Positions 1-55,676 of a stretch of 64,000 bases of DNA are shown here, in pieces. A program made the translations under genes and the position numbers. This DNA comes from a virus. Under the pieces are notes generated by a model that ran no database searches, was not told the DNA's origin, and saw only the letters and a program-made list of their open reading frames with translations. The stretch spans positions 96,001-160,000 of IMG/VR virus record IMGVR_UViG_3300020391_000003. One strand, 5' to 3'. Positions within the stretch are counted from its first letter, which is position 1. Each line of letters starts with the position of its first letter.

Positions 1-22
1 ACATAACCTAATTAAAAATAAA

Positions 23-307
23 ATGGAATTAACACAAGAAGAATATATCTTAGATCAAGTCGCAGAAATTAATCCCGATGCGATTGTGCTTGAACCTCGA
101 TCCACATTCAATCGTGCGATCATTGGAACTGATCCCGATGGTAGAATTGTTTATTCTGCTAACAAGATCATCAATGCGTTTATGGATGTAGATGGTATGA
201 CCGAAGAGGAAGCTATTGAATATTTTGAATACAATACTCTTGGAACTATTCAACCTATGGGAAGTCCAAACAAACCATTCTTTGTCTATGATGAGTTTAT
301 TTTCTAA
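23..307 (+). CDS. Conserved-looking phage hypothetical protein
   Basis: 94-aa ORF with a ...GMTEEEAIEYFEYN.. motif; first gene of a co-oriented run. Confidence 0.75.
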   Translation: MELTQEEYILDQVAEINPDAIVLEPRSTFNRAIIGTDPDGRIVYSANKIINAFMDVDGMTEEEAIEYFEYNTLGTIQPMGSPNKPFFVYDEFIF

Positions 308-554
308 ATTTTTTAGTTCGTTTAAAAAGACTCCCAAGTTATCGAAAGAGGAAATCGAAGCACTTATCGACAAGCATCAACCTATTCTTGAAAGATTGGG
401 AGATGAAATGGATTATGATGGTATGGGTGATTACGGAAGATTTCCACCGATTAAAAAACAAAAAGAAATTATCGGAGACGATTATCCAACTTATGAGCAA
501 TTAATCAAAGAATATGAATTACAAAATTCTAAGCAAAGTGCAAAAAGAAATTGA
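288..554 (+). CDS. Hypothetical protein
   Basis: Start moved to ATG 288 (MMSLFSKFF), which overlaps the upstream gene end. Confidence 0.55.
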   Translation: MMSLFSKFFSSFKKTPKLSKEEIEALIDKHQPILERLGDEMDYDGMGDYGRFPPIKKQKEIIGDDYPTYEQLIKEYELQNSKQSAKRN

Positions 555-729
555 TACAATTAAAGATATGCACAAGCATATTAAAGATTTGGAAATGGAA
601 CTTGAGTTTTTGTACGCAAGAGAACCTAACGAAATTAATTATATTATTAGCGTAGAAAAACAAGTAGACGAACTATACGAAAAACTAGAAGAACTAGAAA
701 AATATCAAGATGACAGACTCAAACAATAA
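514..729 (+). CDS. Hypothetical coiled-coil protein
   Basis: 71-aa ORF overlapping its neighbours. Confidence 0.6.
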   Translation: MNYKILSKVQKEIDTIKDMHKHIKDLEMELEFLYAREPNEINYIISVEKQVDELYEKLEELEKYQDDRLKQ

Positions 730-931
730 GCAACGAAAGAATCCTTATCAAAGACCAAAGAGATTAACAGATATTGATGATATGAGATATGATTTAGCAG
801 AAGCAGAAGCAATGAATATGAATACTGCTGATATTATAAATTTACTTATAGATGGATTTGAAGGATTAGATAATATTTCTGATCTTGAAATTGAAGAAGA
901 ATGGAATAATTTATTTGGAGATAAAGCTTGA
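710..931 (+). CDS. Hypothetical protein
   Basis: 73-aa acidic ORF in a tight gene run. Confidence 0.65.
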   Translation: MTDSNNKQRKNPYQRPKRLTDIDDMRYDLAEAEAMNMNTADIINLLIDGFEGLDNISDLEIEEEWNNLFGDKA

Positions 932-956
932 CAAGATCAACAATCTAGTTCATACT
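928..956 (+). promoter_or_regulatory. sigma70-type early promoter
   Basis: TTGACA-17 nt-CATACT just before ORF 964. Confidence 0.75.
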
Positions 957-963
957 TATAGCT

Positions 964-1194
964 ATGAAAATAACAAATCAATGGGACGAAAGTTTTGAAA
1001 TCGAGGTTGGCGATTGGGTTGGCTTTAAATGCGATATAGAACAAGAAGGCATTGTCAAGTCGATTCAAAGATCAAGACATACTTTAATTGTTGAAAACCC
1101 TCATGGTTTTCATGGAGATTATATTGGTGGAGATACAGAAGCATTACTTGCTTTTGATGATGTATGGGAAATCGCAGGATTTTTAGGTTCTTAA
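964..1194 (+). CDS. Hypothetical protein (possible SH3-like beta fold)
   Basis: 76 aa, IEVGDWVGFK..; follows a promoter. Confidence 0.7.
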   Translation: MKITNQWDESFEIEVGDWVGFKCDIEQEGIVKSIQRSRHTLIVENPHGFHGDYIGGDTEALLAFDDVWEIAGFLGS

Positions 1195-1195
1195 T

Positions 1196-1399
1196 ATGAA
1201 ATTAACGAAATATCAAAAAGATAGACTGCTTGAGCATGATTGGGATTTATATACAACCGATGATGGCGAGCAGAATTGTGCATGGATCAGCATTGCTCCC
1301 GAAGATGGTAGAATCTTTGGAGAAGTAGTCGAACAATTAGGCTTGACAGGAGAAGGTGAAGATGTTAAATTATTAATTGTTGCAACTGCTGAAGATTAA
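1196..1399 (+). CDS. Hypothetical protein
   Basis: 67 aa, abuts its neighbours (TAATG overlap). Confidence 0.7.
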   Translation: MKLTKYQKDRLLEHDWDLYTTDDGEQNCAWISIAPEDGRIFGEVVEQLGLTGEGEDVKLLIVATAED

Positions 1400-1713
1400 T
1401 GAAATTAAGAAATGCTATTGACATTGTTTTAAATGAAGCAGAATCTTCTGCTCTTGGAGAGAACAATCAAGAGACAATCAAAGCAGTAACTTTATTGCAT
1501 GATTTTTTAGAGTGGGTTGCAGATGACATCAAGATTTGGGATGAAATGACAAACGATGGATTTATTCTTGAACACTTTTATAATGACGCTAATAAAATGA
1601 AAGATTTTGAGTTATTAAGCAAAGAAGAATTTTTAAAGCAACATCCTTTTGTAAAAGAAAAAGAATATAATTTAACTAGATTGAAACAAAAAGAACAAGG
1701 AGATATAAAATGA
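1399..1713 (+). CDS. Hypothetical protein
   Basis: 104 aa, ATGA overlap with the next gene. Confidence 0.7.
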   Translation: MKLRNAIDIVLNEAESSALGENNQETIKAVTLLHDFLEWVADDIKIWDEMTNDGFILEHFYNDANKMKDFELLSKEEFLKQHPFVKEKEYNLTRLKQKEQGDIK

Positions 1714-2303
1714 ATAATTATTTTAATAACGCACAAGTAAATTGGAATACATGGACTCCACAAGATATTATTTTCAAAAGCAATAATATTGTAAAGCAGT
1801 TAATTCCACAAGAAAATGTATTAAGTTACAAGAGTAAGAGTGATCGTGATGTGCAAATGTGCAAACTCACTAATGGCAAAGCATATCACAATAACTATTC
1901 AAACGCAACATATTATAGTCGTGACAACTATCGTGCAGTTCATGTATGGCTTAAAGATGTTAAGTCAGAGTATCCAACTGCCAATGTTGATTTTATTGAT
2001 TACACAAATAGAACAGATAGCGTTGGTAATGCAAAAGCTTGTATTGATGTCTTGATATACATTCAATCTTTTCATCAACCTTGGGAATGGAAACGAGATC
2101 AAAACGGCAATTACATCAAAGTAAACAATGCTAATCCTAGTCCACTTGAAGAAGGTTACAGAATTTGTTATGGTGGACAAGGAGACTCAAACCCTCTTAG
2201 TCATTCCGAGTTTCAAGAAGTCTTGGATATAACTGAATCGGTTCGTAGATTTCTATTTGAAATGCTGATTCCATATCGCAACGGAGAACTGCTTGTAGCA
2301 TGA
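1710..2303 (+). CDS. Hypothetical protein
   Basis: 197-aa ORF coupled at both ends. Confidence 0.8.
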   Translation: MNNYFNNAQVNWNTWTPQDIIFKSNNIVKQLIPQENVLSYKSKSDRDVQMCKLTNGKAYHNNYSNATYYSRDNYRAVHVWLKDVKSEYPTANVDFIDYTNRTDSVGNAKACIDVLIYIQSFHQPWEWKRDQNGNYIKVNNANPSPLEEGYRICYGGQGDSNPLSHSEFQEVLDITESVRRFLFEMLIPYRNGELLVA

Positions 2304-2398
2304 TCGAGGTATTTAATATTATAAATCTTTTGCTTGGATTAACTATGTGCGTTGTTGCATTTGGATTCGTGATTGTTTACTTGAGCGAAGAAGAATAA
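2300..2398 (+). CDS. 32-aa single-TM micropeptide (MIEVFNIINLLLGLTMCVVAFGFVIVYLSEEE)
   Basis: Hand-translated; ATGA overlap with the upstream stop; hydrophobic helix plus acidic tail. Confidence 0.55.
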   Translation: MIEVFNIINLLLGLTMCVVAFGFVIVYLSEEE

Positions 2399-2401
2399 GC
2401 C

Positions 2402-2430
2402 TTGACACATTGAAAAAATTTCAGTATAAT
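2402..2430 (+). promoter_or_regulatory. sigma70-type early promoter
   Basis: Perfect TTGACA-17 nt-TATAAT. Confidence 0.8.
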
Positions 2431-2585
2431 ATATCTTATCAATTAGGAGAAGAGAATAAAGAAATTGGATTTCATTCAAAAGCAAACATGATTGACTACT
2501 TAAATAAAAACAAAAATTATTTAAATAAACTAAATCATGTATATTTGAACTTTAAAACTATCAAACTATCAATTAAACAATCAAC

Positions 2586-2807
2586 ATGGAAAACAAAATA
2601 ACTAAAGAAGAATTATTGTTGAATCAAATTATTGATTCTTGTAATCAGATTATTGATAATCTTTCGTTGGGTGCAAGAACAACTCAAGCAGATTACAATT
2701 CTCTTGGATATATTTATAGCGGAATTACCGCATTGCAAAATAGAATTTATACTGACTTGGATAATCAAATTACTCAAGATGTACAGAACTCAAAGTACAA
2801 TGTTTAA
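2586..2807 (+). CDS. Hypothetical protein
   Basis: 73-aa ORF. Confidence 0.65.
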   Translation: MENKITKEELLLNQIIDSCNQIIDNLSLGARTTQADYNSLGYIYSGITALQNRIYTDLDNQITQDVQNSKYNV

Positions 2808-2931
2808 TAAATTATTTTTTTTGATTACTACATTATTACCTTTCGGATGCTCTAGCAAGCAGTTTGCTTTCAACGATTGCTATTGCGTAGAAACATCCAT
2901 CAACTGCGAAATCTGCAAACCCATAAACTAA
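2800..2931 (+). CDS. Small putative lipoprotein (43 aa)
   Basis: MFNKLFFLITTLLPFGC: signal peptide with lipobox-like end, Cys-rich tail. Confidence 0.45.
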   Translation: MFNKLFFLITTLLPFGCSSKQFAFNDCYCVETSINCEICKPIN

Positions 2932-3096
2932 ATGCAAGAAATAATAAATAAAATATACGAAAGAATGGAATTTTGTGCAAATGCACATACAAACGATCAA
3001 GCCGAAGAACAAGCATATATTCTTGAAATAACTTGCTTGAACGAAATCTTAGATCAAATAGAAACTTTTCCTTGGGAAAGCGAAGAAGTTAATTGA
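2932..3096 (+). CDS. Hypothetical protein (54 aa)
   Basis: Hand-translated MQEIINKIYERMEF..; abuts the previous stop. Confidence 0.55.
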   Translation: MQEIINKIYERMEFCANAHTNDQAEEQAYILEITCLNEILDQIETFPWESEEVN

Positions 3097-3118
3097 ATCA
3101 AAAAAACTATAAAATAAC

Positions 3119-3301
3119 ATGAGCAAGAAGGCAACAAAAAAAGGAGTAACAACCAAAGAACAAAGCTACAAACTTCACATGGTTTGCAAGAAGACATCTC
3201 ACACAGGAGCAAAACCACTTGTACCTCACATTAGCAATCCTAATGTTATGGTAACACAAAAGGTTCGGGATGCACAAGAACGCAACAGAAAAACGCAATA
3301 A
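3119..3301 (+). CDS. Hypothetical basic protein
   Basis: 60-aa ORF. Confidence 0.6.
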   Translation: MSKKATKKGVTTKEQSYKLHMVCKKTSHTGAKPLVPHISNPNVMVTQKVRDAQERNRKTQ

Positions 3302-3473
3302 TTTTTTTCTGCAATTAACAGAGCGTTGGCAAGATGGTCAGTATTTGGAAGTTGCAGATTATGTTGCTCATCACGAAATATTTAGCGAACGATCTAACCT
3401 CATAGATTTTTGCGTTTACTTATCTAAGCATCTAGGACTCAAAGAGTTAAGAGTGCTACAAAAATTAATTTAA
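3270..3473 (+). CDS. Hypothetical protein
   Basis: 67-aa ORF; start uncertain. Confidence 0.55.
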   Translation: MHKNATEKRNNFFLQLTERWQDGQYLEVADYVAHHEIFSERSNLIDFCVYLSKHLGLKELRVLQKLI

Positions 3474-3480
3474 AAAAGCC

Positions 3481-3509
3481 TTGACAGGCAATCCAAAATT
3501 TAGTATTAT
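3481..3509 (+). promoter_or_regulatory. sigma70-type promoter of the ligase gene
   Basis: TTGACA-17 nt-TATTAT. Confidence 0.75.
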
Positions 3510-3515
3510 ATACTT

Positions 3516-4709
3516 ATGACGAAAAAATTGCAAACACTCTACAAAGTAGATACCAAAGGAAAACTGCGTGAATGGACTATGCACATTGATGGCAATTCAT
3601 TTTATGCAGTCAAGGGTCTTGTCGATGGCAAGAAAACTCAAGACAAAGCTACAACCACAATCGCTAAGAATGTTGGGCGAAGCAATGAAACTACTCCCGA
3701 AGCTCAAGCAGAGTTACAAGCTCAAGCCAAGTTCCAAAAGAAATTGGATAGTGGATATGCTCTTAACGAGATAGATGCACAAGAAAAAAAGTTTTATGAG
3801 CCTATGCTTGCACACAACTTTAAAGATCGTAAGCACGAATTGAAGTATCCTATTTACTCGCAACCAAAACTAGATGGTATTCGTTGCATCGTTCGCAAAG
3901 AAGGTGATACGCTTGTAGGAAGAACTCGCAATGGTAAAGAGATAGAATGTATTCCTCACATTCTTTCAAGCCTAAATAGCTTTTTTCTCGCTCATCCAAA
4001 GGCTATTCTCGATGGAGAATTGTACAACCATGATCTAAGAGACAACTTCAATAAAATTACTTCACTTGTTCGCAAGCAAAAACCTGTTAAATCAGATAAG
4101 ATGACAGACAATGCTTATGCAAAAAAAGTAAAAGAATATCAAGAAAGACTCGCAGAAGCAGAAGAGACAATTCAATATCATGTATATGATGTTCCTTATC
4201 TTCACGATTCATGCACAGAAAAAACTTCATTCGATATGCGTTTTACTGAACTAAAAAATTCATTGAATATTGGTATTGTTATTCACCGCAATGTAACATT
4301 AGTTGAAACTAGTGAAGTGTTTAATGAAAGTGATCTTGACAATTTGTATGGTCAGTATCTTGATCTAGGATACGAAGGTCAAATGGTTCGCAAAGATGAA
4401 GCATACGAAAACAAACGAAGCACAACTTTGCTCAAGCGTAAAGAGTTTATTGATTCCGAATATCGAGTGATTGACATTGATGTAGGCAATGGTAATCGTA
4501 GTGGTACTGCAAAGCATCTTGTATGCTACTGCGACAAGACCAAGCAAACATTCAATTCAAACATCAAAGGTTCATTTGATTACCTCAAAGAAGTTTATGA
4601 TAATCGCAAAGATTATATTGGTCAGTTGGCTACAATCAAGTATTTCCAACTTACTCCCGATGGAATTCCACGCTTTCCGTATGCAATAAGTTTCAGAAAC
4701 TACGAGTAA
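3516..4709 (+). CDS. lig: ATP-dependent DNA ligase
   Basis: Adenylation motif QPKLDGIR, ILDGELY, GYEGQMVR, LLKRK, C-terminal OB fold GIPRFP. Confidence 0.95.
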   Translation: MTKKLQTLYKVDTKGKLREWTMHIDGNSFYAVKGLVDGKKTQDKATTTIAKNVGRSNETTPEAQAELQAQAKFQKKLDSGYALNEIDAQEKKFYEPMLAHNFKDRKHELKYPIYSQPKLDGIRCIVRKEGDTLVGRTRNGKEIECIPHILSSLNSFFLAHPKAILDGELYNHDLRDNFNKITSLVRKQKPVKSDKMTDNAYAKKVKEYQERLAEAEETIQYHVYDVPYLHDSCTEKTSFDMRFTELKNSLNIGIVIHRNVTLVETSEVFNESDLDNLYGQYLDLGYEGQMVRKDEAYENKRSTTLLKRKEFIDSEYRVIDIDVGNGNRSGTAKHLVCYCDKTKQTFNSNIKGSFDYLKEVYDNRKDYIGQLATIKYFQLTPDGIPRFPYAISFRNYE

Positions 4710-4826
4710 ACATATACTCTAACATACAACACAACATATTAATATCTTTATATTCACTATACAAGACAATACAAAGCAAAATATAAGTAATAACATTGTT
4801 TTCTGTAATAATAAATAAAATATTGT

Positions 4827-4861
4827 GTGGTTTAATGTGGGTTAAAATGGTGAATAGTGGA
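4827..4861 (+). promoter_or_regulatory. Four (G/A)TGG boxes at exact 10-bp period (MraZ-box-like array)
   Basis: GTGG 4827, GTGG 4837, ATGG 4847, GTGG 4857 in AT-rich intergenic DNA. Confidence 0.55.
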
Positions 4862-5214
4862 GTGCGAGACTTAAATATATAAAATAATTGATTAGATTAT
4901 AAATTAAAAACAAATAATATTTCGAGCTTGAAAATAAAAAAAAATTAAATAAAATAAATAATAAGCACTAATTAAATGAAAAAATTACTAAAGTTATCGA
5001 CACAAATAACAAGACAATTACAAAAAATTTATTATAAAATACGGCGAATTACAAAAGTTTTTTTGTCAAATAAAAGCGAAAATAAACAAATTGAATTTGA
5101 GTTTAATGAGCATGGTCGAGATTCTTACGGATTTCCAAACTTTTTCAAAAGAAAATAAAATAAGTCAATTCTTTACATTAATTTACAAAATTTTTAAGTT
5201 TTTTTAATTTATTC

Positions 5215-5243
5215 TTGACATCGTGTTTAATGTATTGTATACT
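5215..5243 (+). promoter_or_regulatory. sigma70-type early promoter
   Basis: TTGACA-17 nt-TATACT with extended TG. Confidence 0.75.
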
Positions 5244-5255
5244 ATGTAACATATT

Positions 5256-5423
5256 ATGAGTGAAGAAACACAACAAAATCAAGAAAGCGTATCTGTTCCA
5301 CCGCCACTAACAGACGAACAGAAGATAGAAATGCTTAAAAACATGATCGAAACTGCTCCAAGCGAGGAGATTCGCAAGCAAGTAGAAAAAGCTTTACAAC
5401 AACAACAACAAAATAATACTTGA
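5256..5423 (+). CDS. Hypothetical protein (55 aa)
   Basis: Hand-translated MSEETQQNQES..; directly after a promoter. Confidence 0.65.
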   Translation: MSEETQQNQESVSVPPPLTDEQKIEMLKNMIETAPSEEIRKQVEKALQQQQQNNT

Positions 5424-5434
5424 TACAATAAAAA

Positions 5435-5635
5435 ATGGATGAATTGCAAAAAATAAGTGCCGAAATAATAAATATATTTAATAATAAGGTAGAATCACTA
5501 TCAGAAGAACAAGCAGAAGTATTAAATTTGCACAATAATAGTATGAATTTTTATATTCAATTGGGTGATCGACAAAAAGCCATGTGGGAAGCACAACAAA
5601 CACTAAAATATTTAATCCAAATAACTCATGATTGA
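5435..5635 (+). CDS. Hypothetical protein
   Basis: 66-aa ORF. Confidence 0.6.
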   Translation: MDELQKISAEIINIFNNKVESLSEEQAEVLNLHNNSMNFYIQLGDRQKAMWEAQQTLKYLIQITHD

Positions 5636-5849
5636 TGATCTTGATCCTAGTGCCGAAGAAGTATTACAACTTACTCTTGAAATATTACATTTAATTGAAA
5701 CTAAAGCTAGTTTGATTAGTGATGATGAGATGAATGAAGTGCTTATGTCTAATGAATCAATACAATTCTTTATTGAACAAGATGATACCGACAGGGCACT
5801 GCTTGAAGCCCGCAATCTAAAAAAATATTTAATGCGATTAGGCACATAA
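5628..5849 (+). CDS. Hypothetical protein
   Basis: 73-aa ORF overlapping the previous one. Confidence 0.65.
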   Translation: MIDDLDPSAEEVLQLTLEILHLIETKASLISDDEMNEVLMSNESIQFFIEQDDTDRALLEARNLKKYLMRLGT

Positions 5850-5984
5850 TAATATTGCATCATATAAAAAGCAATAATACAATCTTTTATCTTATACAAT
5901 ACATAATACTAAATAAACAATCTAATTGCAGGATATAAAAAGCAAAATATATCAATTCAAATAAACATTTAATTATAAAAAATT

Positions 5985-6134
5985 ATGAAGCAAATAAACA
6001 CAAATAAGTATTTGGTTGGCAAAAAGAAGTTGGGCAAAGGCAAAGTCGGAGCTAGAGGTGGAGTTGGTGTTCCAACAGGAGCTTTCGGAGGAAAATCCAA
6101 GTTCAACAAGAAAAAGCTTGACAAGTCTGAGTAA
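5985..6134 (+). CDS. Small Lys/Gly-rich basic protein (49 aa)
   Basis: Hand-translated MKQINTNKYLVGKKKLGKGKVGARGG.. Confidence 0.55.
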   Translation: MKQINTNKYLVGKKKLGKGKVGARGGVGVPTGAFGGKSKFNKKKLDKSE

Positions 6135-6145
6135 TCTGTCATAAT
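6118..6145 (+). promoter_or_regulatory. Early promoter, extended -10 class
   Basis: TTGACA-16 nt-CATAAT with TCTGT before the -10; same TCTGTCATAAT at 7808, 11099, 12082. Confidence 0.7.
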
Positions 6146-6183
6146 AGAGTACATCAACCATTAATTGCTAACGAAAGGAAATT

Positions 6184-6405
6184 ATGAGCATTGCAAAAAA
6201 CGCACGAGCAAGTCAAGTTATGAACGACATACAGAGTGGCAAACACACGCCCATCAATAAAAGAGGTAAGTTTGCAAATTTCGGTTCAATCGCAGAAGAT
6301 AGTATTTATTATCACACAATGCTTGCAGATCAAGCTGATGCAAAACAAAAAGCTAAAGCTCAACAAGCTAAAGCAAGACTTAGATTAAAAGGAATTATTG
6401 TTTAA
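6184..6405 (+). CDS. Hypothetical protein
   Basis: 73 aa; SD-like GAAAGGA upstream. Confidence 0.7.
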   Translation: MSIAKNARASQVMNDIQSGKHTPINKRGKFANFGSIAEDSIYYHTMLADQADAKQKAKAQQAKARLRLKGIIV

Positions 6406-6407
6406 TT

Positions 6408-6680
6408 ATGCACCCAAAAGTAGAACAACCTGTTGGTTCGTATACCGAATTTGAAAAGCTTGCCTGGATAAGCACCAAAGCAATTCCTGCCATAGGAAGT
6501 AAGCTGAATGTAAAAATTAATGGAATTGGCGAATCTATTGTTAAGAAGTATTTCGTAGAGTATGGCTTTATTGGGATGCTTGTTACTCCTCAGAATCCAC
6601 CTGCTTGGTACATCAAGCAAAACGGAAAAGGTGCTGATTGCCATGTTTATCCTGCTGAATGTGAAGAGCTAAGAGGATGA
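6408..6680 (+). CDS. Hypothetical protein
   Basis: 90-aa ORF. Confidence 0.7.
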   Translation: MHPKVEQPVGSYTEFEKLAWISTKAIPAIGSKLNVKINGIGESIVKKYFVEYGFIGMLVTPQNPPAWYIKQNGKGADCHVYPAECEELRG

Positions 6681-6686
6681 TTAACA

Positions 6687-6893
6687 ATGGACTGGATAGT
6701 TAGAACATACGACGAGCAAGACAATCAAATCTCGTCCTTTATTATACAGAATAGAACAGAGTCTCAGGCAGAGCGTGAGGCGATGCACGATACAGAAGTT
6801 AGATCCGCCGAAGATTGGAGTATGGAGGAATACAATGGAATGATTAACCCATCAGATAAAAGCAAAATAAATAAAAAAACTCTTGACAAATAA
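6687..6893 (+). CDS. Hypothetical protein
   Basis: 68-aa ORF. Confidence 0.65.
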   Translation: MDWIVRTYDEQDNQISSFIIQNRTESQAEREAMHDTEVRSAEDWSMEEYNGMINPSDKSKINKKTLDK

Positions 6894-6911
6894 TAAATAA
6901 TAGAGTATAAT
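6883..6911 (+). promoter_or_regulatory. Consensus sigma70 promoter driving the ncRNA locus
   Basis: TTGACA-17 nt-TATAAT. Confidence 0.8.
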
Positions 6912-6921
6912 AGATACATAA

Positions 6922-6967
6922 ATTTGAGAACAAAACTCAAATAAATAAAATAAATTGATCTTTAACA
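6922..6967 (+). promoter_or_regulatory. rrn-like boxB/boxA antitermination signal
   Basis: Hairpin ATTTGAG-AACAAAA-CTCAAAT, then TGATCTTTAACA (one mismatch to E. coli rrn boxA TGCTCTTTAACA). Confidence 0.5.
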
Positions 6968-6980
6968 TTTTAAACACTTT

Positions 6981-7186
6981 GGAAGGGCTTATAATCCTTC
7001 CTGTGGGTGACTGAGCAAGCCTGTGATGAGCGGGCTAAGGTACGCAGATTCCTTGTGGTGAGGTAGCAGAGTCCAATCGGATGAGCTGATGACGAATACC
7101 AAGTCTAATTTGTGGTGCGAAGTAGGAAACACTTGAACTGATGTTCATCCCGAAAAGTCGAGGGTATACAGTAATCCCTTCCCACA
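6981..7186 (+). ncRNA. Candidate structured ncRNA of about 200 nt, family unknown
   Basis: GC-rich non-coding island between a promoter and a terminator; 5'/3' complementarity (GGAAGGG/CCCTTCC, TGTGGG/CCCACA) and several internal hairpins. Confidence 0.65.
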
Positions 7187-7234
7187 CTAATTTTCTTAAT
7201 CATACAATCCCTAACCCTGTCCAAGACAAAGAAG

Positions 7235-7257
7235 AACCTCTTGGATGGGGTTTTTTT
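7235..7257 (+). terminator. Intrinsic terminator
   Basis: AACCTC-ttggat-GGGGTT plus T-run. Confidence 0.6.
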
Positions 7258-7259
7258 GT

Positions 7260-7288
7260 TTGACAGTCGCATCAAAACCTGGCATAAT
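7260..7288 (+). promoter_or_regulatory. sigma70-type early promoter
   Basis: TTGACA-17 nt-CATAAT. Confidence 0.75.
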
Positions 7289-7295
7289 TATAATC

Positions 7296-7550
7296 ATGAA
7301 CACATTATTACAAATCTTCACGAATTGGGGTTACATTACCGATTCACAACTCAAAGAACTTGTTGAATACTTTCCGCACACGAAAGTGGTTATTCAATGG
7401 GGCAGAATGAAACGCGAGCGTCTTCCAGCATGGGAAGCAATTGAACGCATGGAAAAAGTAGAAGCAGAGGACATTGATTATGTTCGTTCTGTCTTTTTTA
7501 CTTCTCAGGACATGGACAAGCTCAGAGAAGTATTTCACATTGTTCATTAA
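7296..7550 (+). CDS. Hypothetical protein
   Basis: Start moved to ATG 7296 (MNTLLQIF), after the promoter. Confidence 0.7.
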   Translation: MNTLLQIFTNWGYITDSQLKELVEYFPHTKVVIQWGRMKRERLPAWEAIERMEKVEAEDIDYVRSVFFTSQDMDKLREVFHIVH

Positions 7551-7624
7551 TGGAAATCTCAATCATAATAATAATCAGTTTTACAATAGGTATGATAAGA
7601 GCAATAACAGATAATAAACAATAA
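7550..7624 (+). CDS. 24-aa hydrophobic micropeptide MEISIIIIISFTIGMIRAITDNKQ
   Basis: TAATG coupling; paralogue at 13180-13254 with synonymous divergence. Confidence 0.7.
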   Translation: MEISIIIIISFTIGMIRAITDNKQ

Positions 7625-7730
7625 AATAATAAAAGACAAATACTTAAATACTAAATAATCAAGTTCAAATAATTAAATAAAAATTTAAAGTAAATTGCGT
7701 TCAATAGAATAAGTTAATTGAACGAAAAGT

Positions 7731-7769
7731 TTTGTGCAGCTCGGCCCCCCCTGCAATCGTATTGTGCAA
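7731..7769 (+). repeat. G/C-palindrome + ATTGTGCAA element, copy A
   Basis: GGCCCCCCC then TGCAATCGTATTGTGCAA; promoter TTGACA at 7791. Confidence 0.7.
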
Positions 7770-7824
7770 GAAATTAAATGAATTGTTTTCTTGACATTCA
7801 CATCAATTCTGTCATAATGAAGTA

Positions 7825-8262
7825 ATGATTAAGCGAGACTCCCGATACAAGATAAACTTCAACAAAAAAGTCTTTGTTTACAAAAACCTTCACAAAAACT
7901 GTTGGAGCGTAAAGCAAAGCGGATTAGTCAAAGCTCACGCTCTCGAATTGAATCTTTATGATTGCGTTCTCAAGGTCAGCAAAGCGGGTCAGCAAAGAGT
8001 GCGTAATGAAAAGTGTAAAAATGTTCATGCAGGTGTTAGCGGTTATCTTGAACCATACCACTTAGGATTGTCACACGAAGCAGAACTGAATGATGAAGCA
8101 AGAACATTTCAACGAGCTTGGGAAGGTTTACCAAATTCGCAGATGAGAGAGATTACTTACAATCCTTACAAGTATGACTCATTCGTTCATGCAGATGATC
8201 AAACTCCTCGTTGGTTTGGGTCTTTTGTAAGATTATTAGAAAATCAAGTATTTATTGCTTGA
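7825..8262 (+). CDS. Conserved phage hypothetical protein
   Basis: VYKNLHKNCWSV..KNVHAGVSG..ITYNPYKYDSFV motifs recalled from phage proteins. Confidence 0.8.
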   Translation: MIKRDSRYKINFNKKVFVYKNLHKNCWSVKQSGLVKAHALELNLYDCVLKVSKAGQQRVRNEKCKNVHAGVSGYLEPYHLGLSHEAELNDEARTFQRAWEGLPNSQMREITYNPYKYDSFVHADDQTPRWFGSFVRLLENQVFIA

Positions 8263-8293
8263 CTCAAACACCCCCAAATGATAGGATACATTT

Positions 8294-8527
8294 ATGACAC
8301 AATCACAAATTAGAGAAATGATTATTCAACTCACGAAGGGTAATCTCGCATGGGCAGATCCAATGTCTAAAGTTTGCCTTGATCAACACGAACTTCATCC
8401 CAAAAAGTTTCCGCTTGGCAGTACTTTTCAGTCAGCAGAAGAAGTTTTGGATGACATCATTTCAGACTTGACATCTTTCAGAGATGAGCTTAGAATAGAA
8501 TCATCTTTTCAATCAGCACAATTGTAA
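8294..8527 (+). CDS. Hypothetical protein
   Basis: 77-aa ORF. Confidence 0.7.
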   Translation: MTQSQIREMIIQLTKGNLAWADPMSKVCLDQHELHPKKFPLGSTFQSAEEVLDDIISDLTSFRDELRIESSFQSAQL

Positions 8528-8543
8528 ACAAAAGGAAAAAATT

Positions 8544-8954
8544 ATGGGATTAGATCAATACGGATACGCAGTTCCCAAAGAGGAATCTGAAGCTAGAAAC
8601 GAATTAGCTTATTGGCGAAAGCACAACAGGCTACAAGGTTGGATGGAACAACTTTGGAATGACAAAGGCAGACCAAATGCACAAACAGATGGTAATGCCA
8701 TGGGCGACTTTAATTGTGTTGACCTAGAGCTAGATGCCGATGACATTGATGCTTTGGAAGAAGCAATTGAAAATTTCGCTTTGCCCGAAACACAAGGTTT
8801 CTTTTTTGGAGATGATTCCTACCTATGGGAAAGTGAAGATGGCAATCCTTCTTCGGCAAATTATTTTCACAAAGAGCAGGACTTGCAATTCGTTGAAGAA
8901 GCAAGAAAAGCTCTTGACAAAGGCGACAAAGTTGTTTATCATTGTTGGTATTGA
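8544..8954 (+). CDS. Conserved phage hypothetical protein
   Basis: MGLDQY..YWRKHN..FNC..L motifs. Confidence 0.8.
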   Translation: MGLDQYGYAVPKEESEARNELAYWRKHNRLQGWMEQLWNDKGRPNAQTDGNAMGDFNCVDLELDADDIDALEEAIENFALPETQGFFFGDDSYLWESEDGNPSSANYFHKEQDLQFVEEARKALDKGDKVVYHCWY

Positions 8955-8956
8955 TT

Positions 8957-9157
8957 ATGAAAGAACTACAAGACATTATTAACGATCTGCAAGCTAGACT
9001 AGCAATAGTTGGTGGAGGCAGAATTATTATTACTAGCGATGATGTTTCAATTAGCTTGGGAGAAGAACACGAAAACTTTGAGGTTCAAGAAAAAAGTAGT
9101 TGTGATTCTCTGACCAATCCCGATGTTGAAATGTACAACCAAATGTGGGGACAATAA
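8957..9157 (+). CDS. Hypothetical protein
   Basis: Start moved to ATG 8957. Confidence 0.6.
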   Translation: MKELQDIINDLQARLAIVGGGRIIITSDDVSISLGEEHENFEVQEKSSCDSLTNPDVEMYNQMWGQ

Positions 9158-9158
9158 A

Positions 9159-9374
9159 ATGAACAATTACATTGATGCAATTTGCGAAGGACAACCTCTT
9201 GAGTTACCATCTTATGATCAAGACTCCGACATGTGGAGCCTTTGGTTTGAAGAATCAGATACTCCTTGGCATCCTTACTTTCAAAAAGATTTAATCGAGG
9301 TTCATTTCGAATCTCAAGCGGAAGCAGAAAGTGCTTATCACCATTACTCACAACCTAACGAAGGGATTTCATGA
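9159..9374 (+). CDS. Hypothetical protein
   Basis: Start moved to ATG 9159. Confidence 0.65.
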   Translation: MNNYIDAICEGQPLELPSYDQDSDMWSLWFEESDTPWHPYFQKDLIEVHFESQAEAESAYHHYSQPNEGIS

Positions 9375-9535
9375 ACAAGTCTAGAATCGAAAGATTAAGA
9401 ATGCAAGTTCGCGAAATAGGCCACAAGCTAGCAATCACTGAGAAACGTGGACTGCAAGGCAAGGACCATTTCGCTCAAAAAATTGCGCACGGTTTATTAT
9501 TGGACCAATTGTACAAGTTGGAAAAAAGAGTCTAA
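9371..9535 (+). CDS. Hypothetical protein (54 aa)
   Basis: Hand-translated; ATGA overlap. Confidence 0.6.
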   Translation: MNKSRIERLRMQVREIGHKLAITEKRGLQGKDHFAQKIAHGLLLDQLYKLEKRV

Positions 9536-9553
9536 AAGTTGACCTATTCGCGG

Positions 9554-9593
9554 GCGGGGGCCCCCCGCTAACCTATCCGGTTTTATTGTTGCA
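9554..9593 (+). repeat. G/C-palindrome element, copy B
   Basis: GCGGGGGCCCCCCGC then ATTGTTGCA; promoter TTGACA-17-CATAAT at 9620-9648. Confidence 0.7.
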
Positions 9594-9655
9594 TAATTCA
9601 ACTAAATGCAAAAAAGGTGTTGACAGGATCGCTCTTTTACTTCATAATTATACTT

Positions 9656-9832
9656 ATGAAAACAATTGATTGCACACCAACATGGAAAACAGCAGTAAGA
9701 ATTTTGACCGAAGTTCTTAAAAACCCAAAAGCCGGACACGCAGACAAGTCCAATGCCACAAACGAATTGCTTAGGCTTGCAGAGATTGTGGACAAACAAA
9801 ATGCACTTAATCGCAAAAAAAAGCTTGACTAA
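9656..9832 (+). CDS. Hypothetical protein
   Basis: Start moved to ATG 9656, after the promoter. Confidence 0.65.
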   Translation: MKTIDCTPTWKTAVRILTEVLKNPKAGHADKSNATNELLRLAEIVDKQNALNRKKKLD

Positions 9833-9853
9833 CACTAAAAAATTTCGTATAAT
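9825..9853 (+). promoter_or_regulatory. sigma70-type early promoter
   Basis: TTGACT-17 nt-TATAAT. Confidence 0.75.
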
Positions 9854-9892
9854 TAAAGCTTCAAAGACAATAACTCAAACCTTAAAAAAAGT

Positions 9893-10645
9893 ATGAATAA
9901 CAGAATTAATCTCTCAGTATGTGCCACAAAAGAATCTTCTTTCGAGGATGTCAAAGCAGTTGCCACTCCTCAAGCAACAGATTCATGGCAACCAATCAGT
10001 CACTCGTTTCTTGTGGATCGAGTTCAAAACCAAATGCAAGACAATGGTTGGGAAATCGTTAACACTTATCATTCTCTTCATCGTTATGGTCAGCGTTACT
10101 TTGGCTTGTTCCATGTTAAGAACACAGGCGTTGACAATGACGAGCGTGGAACTATTGTAGGACTTCGCAACTCGCATGACAAATGCTTTCCTGCAGGTCT
10201 TTGCATGGGCAATGCTCCATTTGTTTGCTCAAACCTTATTTTCACAAACGAGGTTGTTCTTGCTCGCAGACACACCAAAAACATTTTGAATGACTTGTCT
10301 CAAGTTATTGCTCGCACTCTTGGCAAAATGACTGAGACTTGGGCAAGCGATGAGCAACGCATTCAAGCTTACAAGCAGTACGAGCTTGGCAACGAGCAAG
10401 CTCATGACCTTGTGATTCGTGCGTATCAAAATGGTGCAATCAGCAAAGCTAAGATTGCAGATGTTGTTGAGCAATGGCACAAGCCCGAACACGATGACTT
10501 CTCTGAGAGAACCATGCACTCTCTTTACAATGGTTTCACTCACATTCTCAAAGGTGGTATTACCGCATTGCCAAATCGTTCTGTCGCACTTCATGGAGTT
10601 CTTGACTCCGAAGTTGGCTTGACCTCGCAAGTATCAGTTTCTTAA
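9893..10645 (+). CDS. DUF932-family protein
   Basis: WQPISH, LRNSHDK, FVCSNL motifs. Confidence 0.85.
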   Translation: MNNRINLSVCATKESSFEDVKAVATPQATDSWQPISHSFLVDRVQNQMQDNGWEIVNTYHSLHRYGQRYFGLFHVKNTGVDNDERGTIVGLRNSHDKCFPAGLCMGNAPFVCSNLIFTNEVVLARRHTKNILNDLSQVIARTLGKMTETWASDEQRIQAYKQYELGNEQAHDLVIRAYQNGAISKAKIADVVEQWHKPEHDDFSERTMHSLYNGFTHILKGGITALPNRSVALHGVLDSEVGLTSQVSVS

Positions 10646-10676
10646 TCTCAAACCTAAACCTAAACTTAAAATTATT

Positions 10677-10907
10677 ATGAGCATAGAACCAAAACTCCAA
10701 AATGTAGTTGACTCTCTCAAGGGTCGTTTCGTTTCCCTTCTTGTCAAAAAAGGCGAGCAAAGGAAAGTGTATTCCGCTAAGGTCATTAATGTCACACCTC
10801 GCAATGTGATGTTTCAAGACACCAATGGTGGAAATCGTCGGATCAATCGTCGCCATGTGCTTCGAGCCACTTGCTCAAACAAGACTTTCAAAAGGTCGGT
10901 GAGTTAA
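10677..10907 (+). CDS. Hypothetical small beta protein
   Basis: 76-aa ORF. Confidence 0.65.
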   Translation: MSIEPKLQNVVDSLKGRFVSLLVKKGEQRKVYSAKVINVTPRNVMFQDTNGGNRRINRRHVLRATCSNKTFKRSVS

Positions 10908-10911
10908 TTGG

Positions 10912-10960
10912 TTGCTCCAAATATGGAGTAAATTGCTCCAAATACGGAGCCAAATATGAG
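10912..10960 (+). repeat. Tandem GCTCC-AAATAY-GGAG hairpins (two complete, one partial)
   Basis: TTGCTCCAAATATGGAGTAA, TTGCTCCAAATACGGAGC, CAAATATGAG. Confidence 0.7.
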
Positions 10961-10984
10961 CCTCCCTTCGGGGAGGCTTTTTTT
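10959..10984 (+). terminator. Intrinsic terminator
   Basis: AGCCTCCC-TTCG-GGGAGGCT plus T-run. Confidence 0.9.
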
Positions 10985-11021
10985 GCGGACATCAACTGAC
11001 TGATTCAATTGCATTATAGCA

Positions 11022-11060
11022 CTATCAGGGCAGGGGGCCCCCGGCGATAGAATTGTGCAA
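11022..11060 (+). repeat. G/C-palindrome element, copy C
   Basis: GGGGGCCCCC (11033-11042) flanked by CTATC/GATAG, then ATTGTGCAA; promoter TTGACT-16-CATAAT at 11082-11109. Confidence 0.75.
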
Positions 11061-11116
11061 AAACTTAGTTGAATTTTAGACTTGACTTTGCAAGTTAATC
11101 TGTCATAATTGTAACC

Positions 11117-11857
11117 ATGATTAAGACAACTCTACTCACATCAGGTAATCAAAAAATTCTCAAAGGCGAGAAGATGGGTTACATCACCAAAGGAATTCAT
11201 CTTGCACCAGCAAATCTTGCAGGCTACGAAGTTTGCCAATGGCGTTCCAAAGGATGCACGGCATCTTGTCTCAACACAGCAGGTCGTGGACAAATGAATT
11301 CTGTTCAGCAATCACGCATTGCCAAGACAAAGTTATTTTTTGAAGAACGCAAAGAGTTTATGATTAAGCTTTGTAAAGAGATTGCAAGCACCATCAAGTC
11401 GGCACAGAAAAAGCGTATGCAAGCTGTTTTTCGTCTTAACCTTACGAGCGACATTAAATGGGAAGATGTGTTCATGAAAGATCCGGATTACAACATTTTC
11501 GAGTATTTTTACGCAATTCAATTTTACGATTACACCAAGTCTTTCAAAAGAATGTGTGCTTTTCTAGACAAGCCTTTTGCCAAGGATGAACCAAAATTTC
11601 CTTCCAATTATCATTTAACTTTTTCTCGCTCAGAACACAACGACAAAAAGTGTGAGATGGTTCTTGCAATGGGTGGTAATGTTGCGGTAGTATTTCGTAA
11701 TCAGTTGCCCAAAACTTGGAAAGGTTACGAAGTTGTTAATGGTGATGAAACTGATTTACGCTTCCTTGACAAGCGTGGCGTTGTTGTCGGGCTTATCGAA
11801 AAAGGCATGGCAAAGAAAGATCAAACAGGTTTTGTTCAGGAAGGAATTGACTCTTGA
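11117..11857 (+). CDS. GP88-family (gene product 88-like) protein
   Basis: VCQWRSKGCTASCLNTAGRG, RLNLTSDI, FYDYTK, YHLTFS, GDETDLRFLD motifs. Confidence 0.85.
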   Translation: MIKTTLLTSGNQKILKGEKMGYITKGIHLAPANLAGYEVCQWRSKGCTASCLNTAGRGQMNSVQQSRIAKTKLFFEERKEFMIKLCKEIASTIKSAQKKRMQAVFRLNLTSDIKWEDVFMKDPDYNIFEYFYAIQFYDYTKSFKRMCAFLDKPFAKDEPKFPSNYHLTFSRSEHNDKKCEMVLAMGGNVAVVFRNQLPKTWKGYEVVNGDETDLRFLDKRGVVVGLIEKGMAKKDQTGFVQEGIDS

Positions 11858-11882
11858 CATTTGAATTAAACTCAACTATTAT
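11854..11882 (+). promoter_or_regulatory. sigma70-type early promoter
   Basis: TTGACA-17 nt-TATTAT. Confidence 0.7.
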
Positions 11883-11888
11883 TAAAAC

Positions 11889-12050
11889 ATGGATTATTAC
11901 GAATCAGCCGAAGGAGAAATCATTTCAAAAGCTCGTGCCTTGAAAGAATTAGAAGATCATTGTTGCGAAGACATCGAGCAATTTTTTGATGATTTAGGAG
12001 ATCACGAAGAGTATGATGCCCAAAAAGTTTTGGCATGGTTGGGTTATTAA
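11889..12050 (+). CDS. Hypothetical protein (53 aa)
   Basis: Hand-translated MDYYESAEGEII..WLGY. Confidence 0.65.
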   Translation: MDYYESAEGEIISKARALKELEDHCCEDIEQFFDDLGDHEEYDAQKVLAWLGY

Positions 12051-12098
12051 TTTTAATTTAAGTGTTGACAAACAAACTCAATCTGTCATAATTAAATC

Positions 12099-12221
12099 AT
12101 GAAAGCAACCAAAGTCAAAGTAAGAATCCCGATGATTTTTACCAAGTCAAGACCTCACAAAGTCAAAGCTAGAACTTTGCACCGAAAACTAAAACACAAG
12201 GAAAAACTATGCGATTACTAG
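12099..12221 (+). CDS. Small basic peptide (40 aa)
   Basis: Hand-translated MKATKVKVRIPMIFTKSRPHKVK..; follows promoter 12065-12092. Confidence 0.55.
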   Translation: MKATKVKVRIPMIFTKSRPHKVKARTLHRKLKHKEKLCDY

Positions 12222-54367: not shown

Positions 54368-54392
54368 AACAGCCCCAAGGGGCTGTTTTTTT
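54368..54392 (+). terminator. Intrinsic terminator between convergent genes
   Basis: AACAGCCC-CAAG-GGGCTGTT plus T-run. Confidence 0.85.
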
Positions 54393-55656
54393 ATGTCAAG
54401 ATATCCAAGATTGGTGGCTCGCCATTTGAAACTTTAAAAGGTCTTCCGCTAGGAGAGTATGTAATTTTTTCAATACTCAATCCCATAGCGTAAGCAATTG
54501 TTGCATTAATTGATGGAACATCAACTCCTTTTTCTTCAACGTAATGTGCCCGCTTATCAGATTTACCATGAACATAACCTTGCTTAATTCCGCCTCCAGC
54601 AAAAAATACGCTGAACGCAGACGGATGATGATCTCTTCCAACTCTTCCGGCTTTGATTTCTGGAGTTCTTCCAAATTCACTTGCTACAACAACCATTGTA
54701 TCTGAAAGCATACCTCTGCGATCAAGATCTGAGAGCAAGGTCGAAAGTCCATCATCTAAAACTTTTGCTTTGTTTTCTAATCCGCCAAAAACATCATTAT
54801 GCATGTCCCATCCTCCATACGATACTTCTACAAAACGCACTTTGTTTTCTATAAGTCTTCGAGCTAAAAGACAACCTTGACCAAAATTGTTTTGTCCATA
54901 TTCTTCTCTTAATGCTTCTGGCTCGTGAGTAAGGTCAAATGCTTCGAGGTCTTTACTTTTCATAAGTTTTATTGCATCGTCATATAAATCAGAATAAGCT
55001 CTAACTTGTTTTTGAGGAAATTGCCTAGTAAAACCTTCGTTTAAAATACTTGATGCATCTAGTCTGTCTTTATACATATCTTCTTGTACATATCCTGATT
55101 TTTTTACGTTTTGTATGCCAGCATCTGGGTTTCCAAGAGGCAGTGGGCCGTGCTTACTTTCGAAATATCCCGCGCCAATAATTCCACTTCCGCCATTGAT
55201 TTTAACATTATCTGGAAGGCTGTGATTTAATTTTCCACATAATTTACTAATCCAGCTGCCCATGCTTGGGTGAATAATTGTGCCACGCTTTTGATAACTT
55301 GTATGCAAAAGATAGTTTGCTTGTTCATGTGCCCCTTGATTGCTATTTACCGATCGAACTAACGACGCTAAGTGCATTTGTTGCGCTGTTCTAGGAAGCC
55401 AGCTGCCAATCTGAATGCCATCTGCAGAAGTATTTATTGCCGTAGTTTCACCCATAACCTCTTTGTTTTCTGGCTTTGGGTCAAATGTATCTATGTGAGT
55501 CATTCCTCCTGACATATTTAAAAATATAACGTGCCTAGCAGTAGGGACTCGTTCTGTGCGGGCGATTAAATCTTGTCCATATATTAGAGCGTTTACTCCG
55601 AGGTATGCTTTGGCAATATTTTGCGCAAATTGTCTTCTAGTTAATTCATCGTTCAT
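54391..55656 (-). CDS. DUF1501-family protein with a Tat signal
   Basis: LTRRQF; VIFLNMSGGMTHIDTFDPKP; FGQGCLLARRL..GWDMH; SEFGRTP; GRDHHP. Confidence 0.9.
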   Translation of the reverse strand: MNDELTRRQFAQNIAKAYLGVNALIYGQDLIARTERVPTARHVIFLNMSGGMTHIDTFDPKPENKEVMGETTAINTSADGIQIGSWLPRTAQQMHLASLVRSVNSNQGAHEQANYLLHTSYQKRGTIIHPSMGSWISKLCGKLNHSLPDNVKINGGSGIIGAGYFESKHGPLPLGNPDAGIQNVKKSGYVQEDMYKDRLDASSILNEGFTRQFPQKQVRAYSDLYDDAIKLMKSKDLEAFDLTHEPEALREEYGQNNFGQGCLLARRLIENKVRFVEVSYGGWDMHNDVFGGLENKAKVLDDGLSTLLSDLDRRGMLSDTMVVVASEFGRTPEIKAGRVGRDHHPSAFSVFFAGGGIKQGYVHGKSDKRAHYVEEKGVDVPSINATIAYAMGLSIEKITYSPSGRPFKVSNGEPPILDILT

Positions 55657-55676
55657 AATAATTATTTGTTTACACT

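Follow-up and report, generated by a model that had tools for sequence, protein, structure and literature searches.

Weinberg et al. described manA RNA (Rfam RF01745) in 2010 as a candidate riboswitch of marine and cyanophage origin (PMC2864571), and it is routinely annotated in cyanophages (PMC9964418). Rfam types the family as cis-regulatory. Cryo-EM of other manA members in vitro revealed pentamer-based decamers and a 60-mer icosahedral cage (bioRxiv 10.64898/2026.07.01.735769). For boxA, the element that follows the boxB hairpin in rRNA operon leaders, the functional consensus in gamma-proteobacteria is GYTCTTTAANA (PMC5725501).

Here we analysed a locus at positions 6883–7257 of a 64-kb stretch of viral DNA, the whole of which is called the window below. 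The RNA belongs to a known family and is not a new class; what the literature does not describe is its arrangement as a stand-alone unit headed by a leader. It is probably a free-standing manA-family RNA gene of an uncultured phage, with an rRNA-type leader and a product that acts in trans.

The manA core and its fold

The original prediction could assign the RNA to no class and offered it as a candidate for an undescribed RNA system, to be checked with Infernal against Rfam. That search removed the novelty. The core of the locus is a full-length RF01745 manA RNA: its cmscan score of 74 bits (E = 6e-17) exceeds the gathering score of 55.2, and the match spans model positions 1–192 of 192. It was the sole cmscan match above gathering thresholds in the window and the only copy in the 184-kb genome, and a permissive Rfam scan of positions 6700–7450 at E ≤ 1 returned manA alone. 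The prediction of about 200 nt of GC-rich sequence with no substantial ORF was borne out: the G+C content of the manA core is 48%, that of the genome is 34%, and the core holds no ORF longer than 56 aa on either strand.

When the cores of 11 relatives were folded jointly with RNAalifold, the manA architecture was recovered with 49 pairs, 9 of which have double-sided (compensatory) changes; compensatory changes in homologues had been proposed as a check on a functional structure, and they were found. In all 20 loci compared, P1 forms a hairpin, with at least 7 sequences represented among them, and the closing helix covaries, taking 3 forms. The complementary loops at 7055–7060 and 7097–7101 are invariant in the manA group to which the window belongs. 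The fold of the whole predicted transcript shows the leader hairpin, the manA core and the terminator, with the A-tract and the box unpaired; its single-sequence folding z-score is only −1.9.

Two competing ways of pairing the 3′ end had been put forward, and one of them stands. The second, in which 7003–7007 pairs with 7181–7185 on a 7160–7164/7176–7180 hairpin while 6981–7001 forms P1, is the Rfam manA consensus and was recovered on the 11 relatives. The further hairpins named at 7018–7036 and 7135–7148 are present as well and are manA helices. The first, a pairing of the 5′ arm of P1 with the 3′ tail, is not conserved. We considered it as a conserved switch and rejected it: the pairing is worth −12.7 kcal/mol in the window and −2 to −5 kcal/mol elsewhere, the weak values being those of L004, L010, L030 and all cyanophage-type copies. 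Only copies that happen to have a G-rich P1 pair strongly in this way.

A short frame inside the core, ADDEYQV-stop at 7085–7108, had been likened faintly to a tmRNA tag. The frame does read as described, which is the one point in favour of a small peptide or tmRNA-like tag being encoded there. It falls within manA loops that are conserved, and indels disrupt it in relatives such as L004 and L008; ARAGORN and Rfam (RF00023) find no tmRNA in the window, and the real tmRNA sits elsewhere in the genome. We regard the frame as a chance reading, and give an encoded peptide or tag next to no probability. The phage's own tmRNA (tag AKNINSVESFSQEGLALAA) and one tRNA-Thr are located at G000:C1:66721–67082 and 81387–81462, respectively, outside the window. 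The sister contig L004 also encodes a tmRNA, at 10941–11374 (RF00023, 103 bits).

Promoter, leader and terminator of the unit

The features of the unit and of the genes that follow it are listed in Table 1.

Table 1. Features of the manA unit and of the two downstream genes, in window coordinates
Feature	Position	Strand	Details
sigma70 promoter TTGACA-17-TATAAT	6883–6911	+	12/12 consensus match
Leader hairpin, boxB position	6922–6942	+	7 bp (6922–6928/6936–6942), 7-nt loop; in MFE fold
A-rich tract	6943–6955	+	nearly invariant in 37 leaders; predicted unpaired
boxA-like 12-mer TGATCTTTAACA	6956–6967	+	11-mer GATCTTTAACA at 6957–6967; predicted single-stranded
manA RNA (RF01745), full length	6981–7190	+	P1 6981–7001; closing helix 7003–7007/7181–7185
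Intrinsic terminator	7215–7257	+	12-bp stem 7215–7226/7239–7250, 12-nt loop, U7 at 7251–7257, −17 kcal/mol
Following sigma70 promoter TTGACA-17-CATAAT	7260–7288	+	11/12 match, 2 nt after U-run
Conserved 84-aa gene, no known family	7296–7550	+	downstream of manA, syntenic
gp82-like gene, 145 aa	7825–8262		matches mycobacteriophage L5 gp82 (PF25735, 101 bits; phrog_586)

The perfect promoter, the 7-bp hairpin and the boxA-like sequence named in the original prediction are all present at the positions given in Table 1. The first 11 homologous units all have the same −35 hexamer and a conserved −10 hexamer, and from the promoter spacing we infer a transcription start near 6918. The predicted terminator is real, but its extent had been understated: it was placed at 7235–7257, and the stem already begins at 7215. 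The terminator begins 28 nt past the end of manA and does not overlap it. The promoter that follows would serve the downstream gene, whose ATG is at 7296.

The family's 5′-UTR placement is not seen here, since both the terminator (7215–7257) and this second promoter (7260–7288) precede the next ORF. Such placement is contextual and lies outside the covariance model, and membership in RF01745 stands. Because the next gene has its own promoter, the product would be an untranslated RNA and not a 5′-UTR switch, and manA in this locus looks like a separately made RNA.

The leader was compared in 37 distinct versions. The stem arms TTGAG/CTCAA are kept in 36 of them, and the sole exception is compensatory (TTAAG/CTTAA). 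The length of the hairpin loop varies from 7 to 10 nt, which favours an RNA hairpin over a DNA operator. The box core is invariant across the 37 leaders, while the adjacent protein in the same loci is only ~52% identical. Measured from the inferred start, the box in the window lies at 39–50 nt; it comes 14 nt after the hairpin and is separated from manA by a 13-nt spacer. Neither the MFE fold nor the centroid fold shows the box paired. The leader occurs once in the genome, and no boxC was identified in it. The box 12-mer with at most one mismatch is found twice in the genome and about twice in shuffled sequences, that is, at the chance rate; the significance of the box thus rests only on its position and on its conservation in 37 homologous leaders.

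Set against the gamma-proteobacterial consensus GYTCTTTAANA, the window box agrees at 10 of 11 positions; the exception is position 2, an A where the consensus has C or U. The GATCTTTTACA variant departs from the consensus at two positions. These departures speak for a stand-alone manA gene whose leader is not a Nus site and serves instead as a signal specific to the phage, such as a site of RNase processing, a stabilizing 5′ structure or a binding site for a phage protein. We consider this reading possible, although we do not favour it. The boxes of sister units, GTTCTTTAATA or GTTCTTTAAAA, match the same gamma-proteobacterial consensus at all 11 positions and argue against it, while other units match at 9 of 11. 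Conservation cuts the other way: the entire leader is conserved as a block, beyond the box alone, and the stem sequence of the hairpin is kept, as expected for protein recognition. The layout itself, with the hairpin before the box, close to the promoter of an untranslated transcript and with the box predicted to be unpaired, is of the rrn type and weighs against a signal of another kind. Nus binding by the leader is plausible on these sequence comparisons.

A further property of some leaders bears on the same choice. In the long-loop leaders (L006, L008, L009, L011, L030, L163, L171, L183, L284 and L288), the hairpin loop is exactly complementary to 4–5 nt after the A-tract. The complementarity occurs in five sequence versions (GGGC/GCCC, GGAT/ATCC, GAGGC/GCCTC, AGATT/AATCT and AGCT/AGCT), mostly in leaders with the GTTCTTT form of the box, and is absent from the window's own leader. 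This suggests an H-type pseudoknot directly upstream of the box. A longest-helix control was uninformative (4.4 bp for a leader's own sequences versus 3.8 bp for crossed ones) because A/T tracts pair promiscuously, and the pseudoknot is read solely from complementarity in a fixed register. To our knowledge, a pseudoknot between the loop and downstream sequence is not known from rRNA leaders, and its addition in some of these leaders favours a phage-specific signal over a Nus site.

Related units, gene neighbourhood and the carrier phage

Two motif scans of viral contigs followed by a distance filter yielded ~27 manA loci. Eleven of these, including the window's own copy (L001), share the layout of the window, and the ten others score 71–93 bits. 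An extra scan for cyanophage-type manA added zero new loci. A scan with the leader motif only, which is independent of manA, gave 114 matches, and those with a promoter, a hairpin and a box were all manA units. All 12 of the new loci that had enough downstream DNA carried full-length manA with 65–86 bits, above the Rfam threshold.

We tabulated the architecture of 23 related units from uncultured phage contigs. A sigma70 promoter was present in 22 of 23 units, and so was a boxA-like box; the hairpin-box layout of the leader was likewise conserved in 22. The box took the form GATCTTTAACA in 11 units, GATCTTTTACA in 5, GTTCTTTAATA in 3, GATCTTTAAAA in 2 and GTTCTTTTACA in 1. A strong terminator hairpin with a U-run closed 22 of the 23 units, each with a different sequence. 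This comparison bears out the prediction of a stand-alone, ORF-free RNA unit with its own promoter, a leader of hairpin and boxA-like sequence, and a terminator.

The units range from 363 to 732 nt in length, and the 375 nt of the window represent the minimal version. In longer units, additional structured inserts separate the box from manA or follow manA. Such inserts were seen in L002/L005, L003/L119, L009, L030, L133, L154, L163/L188, L169, L181, L207 and L233. None of these optional inserts, which measure 40–200 nt and lie within the same promoter-terminator unit, reaches an Rfam gathering score, and they may be further uncatalogued RNA modules. In three other loci (L017, L042 and L045), a leader with the boxA-like sequence TTGTTCTTTGACA stands before an unassigned RNA with a manA-like 3′ motif, which is directly followed by tRNA genes; this RNA is below the RF01745 threshold.

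The 84-aa gene that follows the window unit has relatives in 55 viral loci, and in 52 of the 54 that could be tested the gene is preceded by manA on the same strand. The protein has no Pfam or PHROG match and is not notably basic. Its AlphaFold model has a pLDDT of 92, and a search for structural relatives gave no convincing one: Foldseek had none at E ≤ 0.001, and the best Z with VIA was 3.9. A relationship to the DUF6561 protein encoded after manA in cyanophages was tried and rejected (hhalign probability 0.2%). In 46 of 55 loci the gp82-like gene is kept after manA and the 84-aa gene, and the genes upstream of the manA unit are kept in only 0 and 6 of 55. Judged by gene order, the conserved block is the manA unit, the 84-aa gene and the gp82-like gene.

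The constancy of the 84-aa gene could mean a regulatory link, and would then fit the riboswitch reading, in which manA is a riboswitch or cis-regulatory leader and the 7215–7257 hairpin is its expression platform for read-through into this gene. That reading also follows the typing of the family as cis-regulatory by Rfam and as a candidate riboswitch by Weinberg et al. (2010). However, because the gp82-like gene is kept as well, the adjacency of manA and the 84-aa gene alone is no proof of coupling and may be plain synteny. A fresh promoter follows the terminator in 21 of the 23 units, and in 20 of these it is near-consensus and only 1–5 nt past the U-run (at 31 nt in L008). With its own promoter right after the U-run, the 84-aa gene would be independent of read-through. 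The terminator is also clear of the aptamer, with the 28-nt spacer in between, its sequences are unrelated among units, and no conserved antiterminator or alternative pairing was found.

The placement of manA in other phages bears on both sides of this question. In several cyanophages, manA lies 18–33 nt before unrelated ORFs with no terminator in between (talC, a DUF6561 gene and a hypothetical gene). This placement looks like a 5′ UTR and agrees with a riboswitch; the manA family may also act in cis. Against a riboswitch, manA-to-tRNA arrangements exist: tRNA genes flank manA, or come directly after it, in cyanophage-type contigs and in S-SSM7. Taken for the unit in the window, we judge the riboswitch reading very unlikely. 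In Synechococcus phage S-SSM7, an annotated 43-aa hypothetical protein (SSSM7_180, L210:1581–1712) lies inside manA and overlaps the start of a tRNA-Gly gene; it is probably a spurious CDS call.

The RNA unit comes from a 184,324-bp virus record of an uncultured phage, rated 100% complete. Among the products of this genome are a Pol III alpha of the DnaE type, ClpB, a class I RNR, PSCyt2/PSD1 proteins and a T4-type terminase N-domain. No cultured phage has a terminase more than 26% identical to the one encoded here (best 22–26%), and a nucleotide search of the RNA unit against 50,697 phage records gave zero matches. By its gene content and these comparisons, the carrier is not a T4-like cyanophage and belongs to a phage lineage without a close cultured relative.

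Near-consensus sigma70 promoters are enriched on the + strand of the region (86 sites versus 51 ± 8 in shuffles). At window positions 1–12100, dense promoters of the TTGACA-16/17-TATAAT type (11–12 of 12 matches) stand on the + strand before small genes, most of which belong to no family, an array as in a phage early region.

Clues to the host were sought in several ways. At window positions 54391–57725 on the − strand, a PSCyt2/PSD1 (DUF1549/DUF1553) protein adjoins a 421-aa ORF. PSCyt2/PSD1 proteins are typical of Planctomycetota and Verrucomicrobiota, and the phage protein is a possible hint toward a host in these phyla. Among 185,579 species genomes, 24 manA motif hits were obtained, 1 of which was genuine (L233). 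It lies on a phage-like 18.8-kb contig in a Neomarinimicrobiota MAG and has the same architecture as the window unit. The 16S leader of this MAG contains only a loose relative of the phage box, and a relative of the phage PSD1 protein was not found in the MAG.

Proposed product and comparison with described RNA systems

The following course of events would fit a free-standing RNA gene. A strong early sigma70 promoter would start the RNA near 6918, and the transcript would consist of the leader, the 13-nt spacer, the 210-nt manA core and an intrinsic terminator ending at ~7257. The product would be an untranslated RNA of ~340 nt, or of ~210 nt if trimmed. The leader most likely works like that of an rRNA operon, by recruiting host NusB/NusE. 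With NusB/NusE recruited, the polymerase would resist Rho on the untranslated transcript, and the pseudoknotted core would fold as it is transcribed. Like manA RNAs in vitro, the mature RNA would probably associate with itself into a particle, and in that form act in trans.

A more far-reaching proposal is that the unit is a dedicated stable-RNA operon: manA would be made early and at a high level by means of the host machinery for rRNA antitermination and folding, optional RNA modules would be added, and pentamer-based particles or cages would form in the cell and act in trans, possibly together with the 84-aa neighbour. We rate this full version as unlikely. If it were true, most phage copies of manA would be misfiled as riboswitch candidates. 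The family has carried that label, as an orphan, since 2010, and in the lineage of ~50 relatives manA is plainly its own gene. The dedicated leader, the terminator, the optional modules and the constant small-protein neighbour argue for a trans-acting stable RNA.

The window RNA shares with RF01745 the P1 hairpin, the closing helix, the multi-stem core, the conserved loops and the occurrence in phage and metagenome DNA. It differs in forming its own unit, headed by a dedicated leader and closed by a terminator, with a separate promoter for the next gene, whereas the family is filed as a 5′-UTR element. The carrier, too, differs: it is no T4-like cyanophage, and its polymerase is of the DnaE type. 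The 10-mer and 60-mer oligomers were reported for other members of the family; in the window copy, the invariant complementary loops (7055–7060/7097–7101) would fit such assembly.

The leaders of rRNA operons (boxB-boxA; NusB/E/A/G and SuhB) resemble that of the window in their promoter-proximal hairpin, their unpaired boxA element, matched here by a boxA-like 11-mer, and the untranslated, structured transcript that follows. In contrast, box position 2 of the window leader is A, its hairpin and box are set apart by an A-rich tract, no boxC was identified, and some of its relatives add a pseudoknot. The nut sites of lambda (boxA-boxB, protein N) likewise combine a boxA-like sequence with a hairpin near the 5′ end of a phage transcript. 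However, in the window the hairpin precedes the box, as in rrn, and the unit is closed by an intrinsic terminator instead of extending through a long operon. Because the hairpin loop is not conserved, N-like recognition of the loop is unlikely. ROOL, GOLLD and OLE are, like manA, structured non-coding RNAs that are often phage-borne and near tRNA genes and that form RNA-only multimers in vitro. They are unrelated to manA in sequence and much larger, and manA is the only one of these families that the unit matches in Rfam at E ≤ 1.
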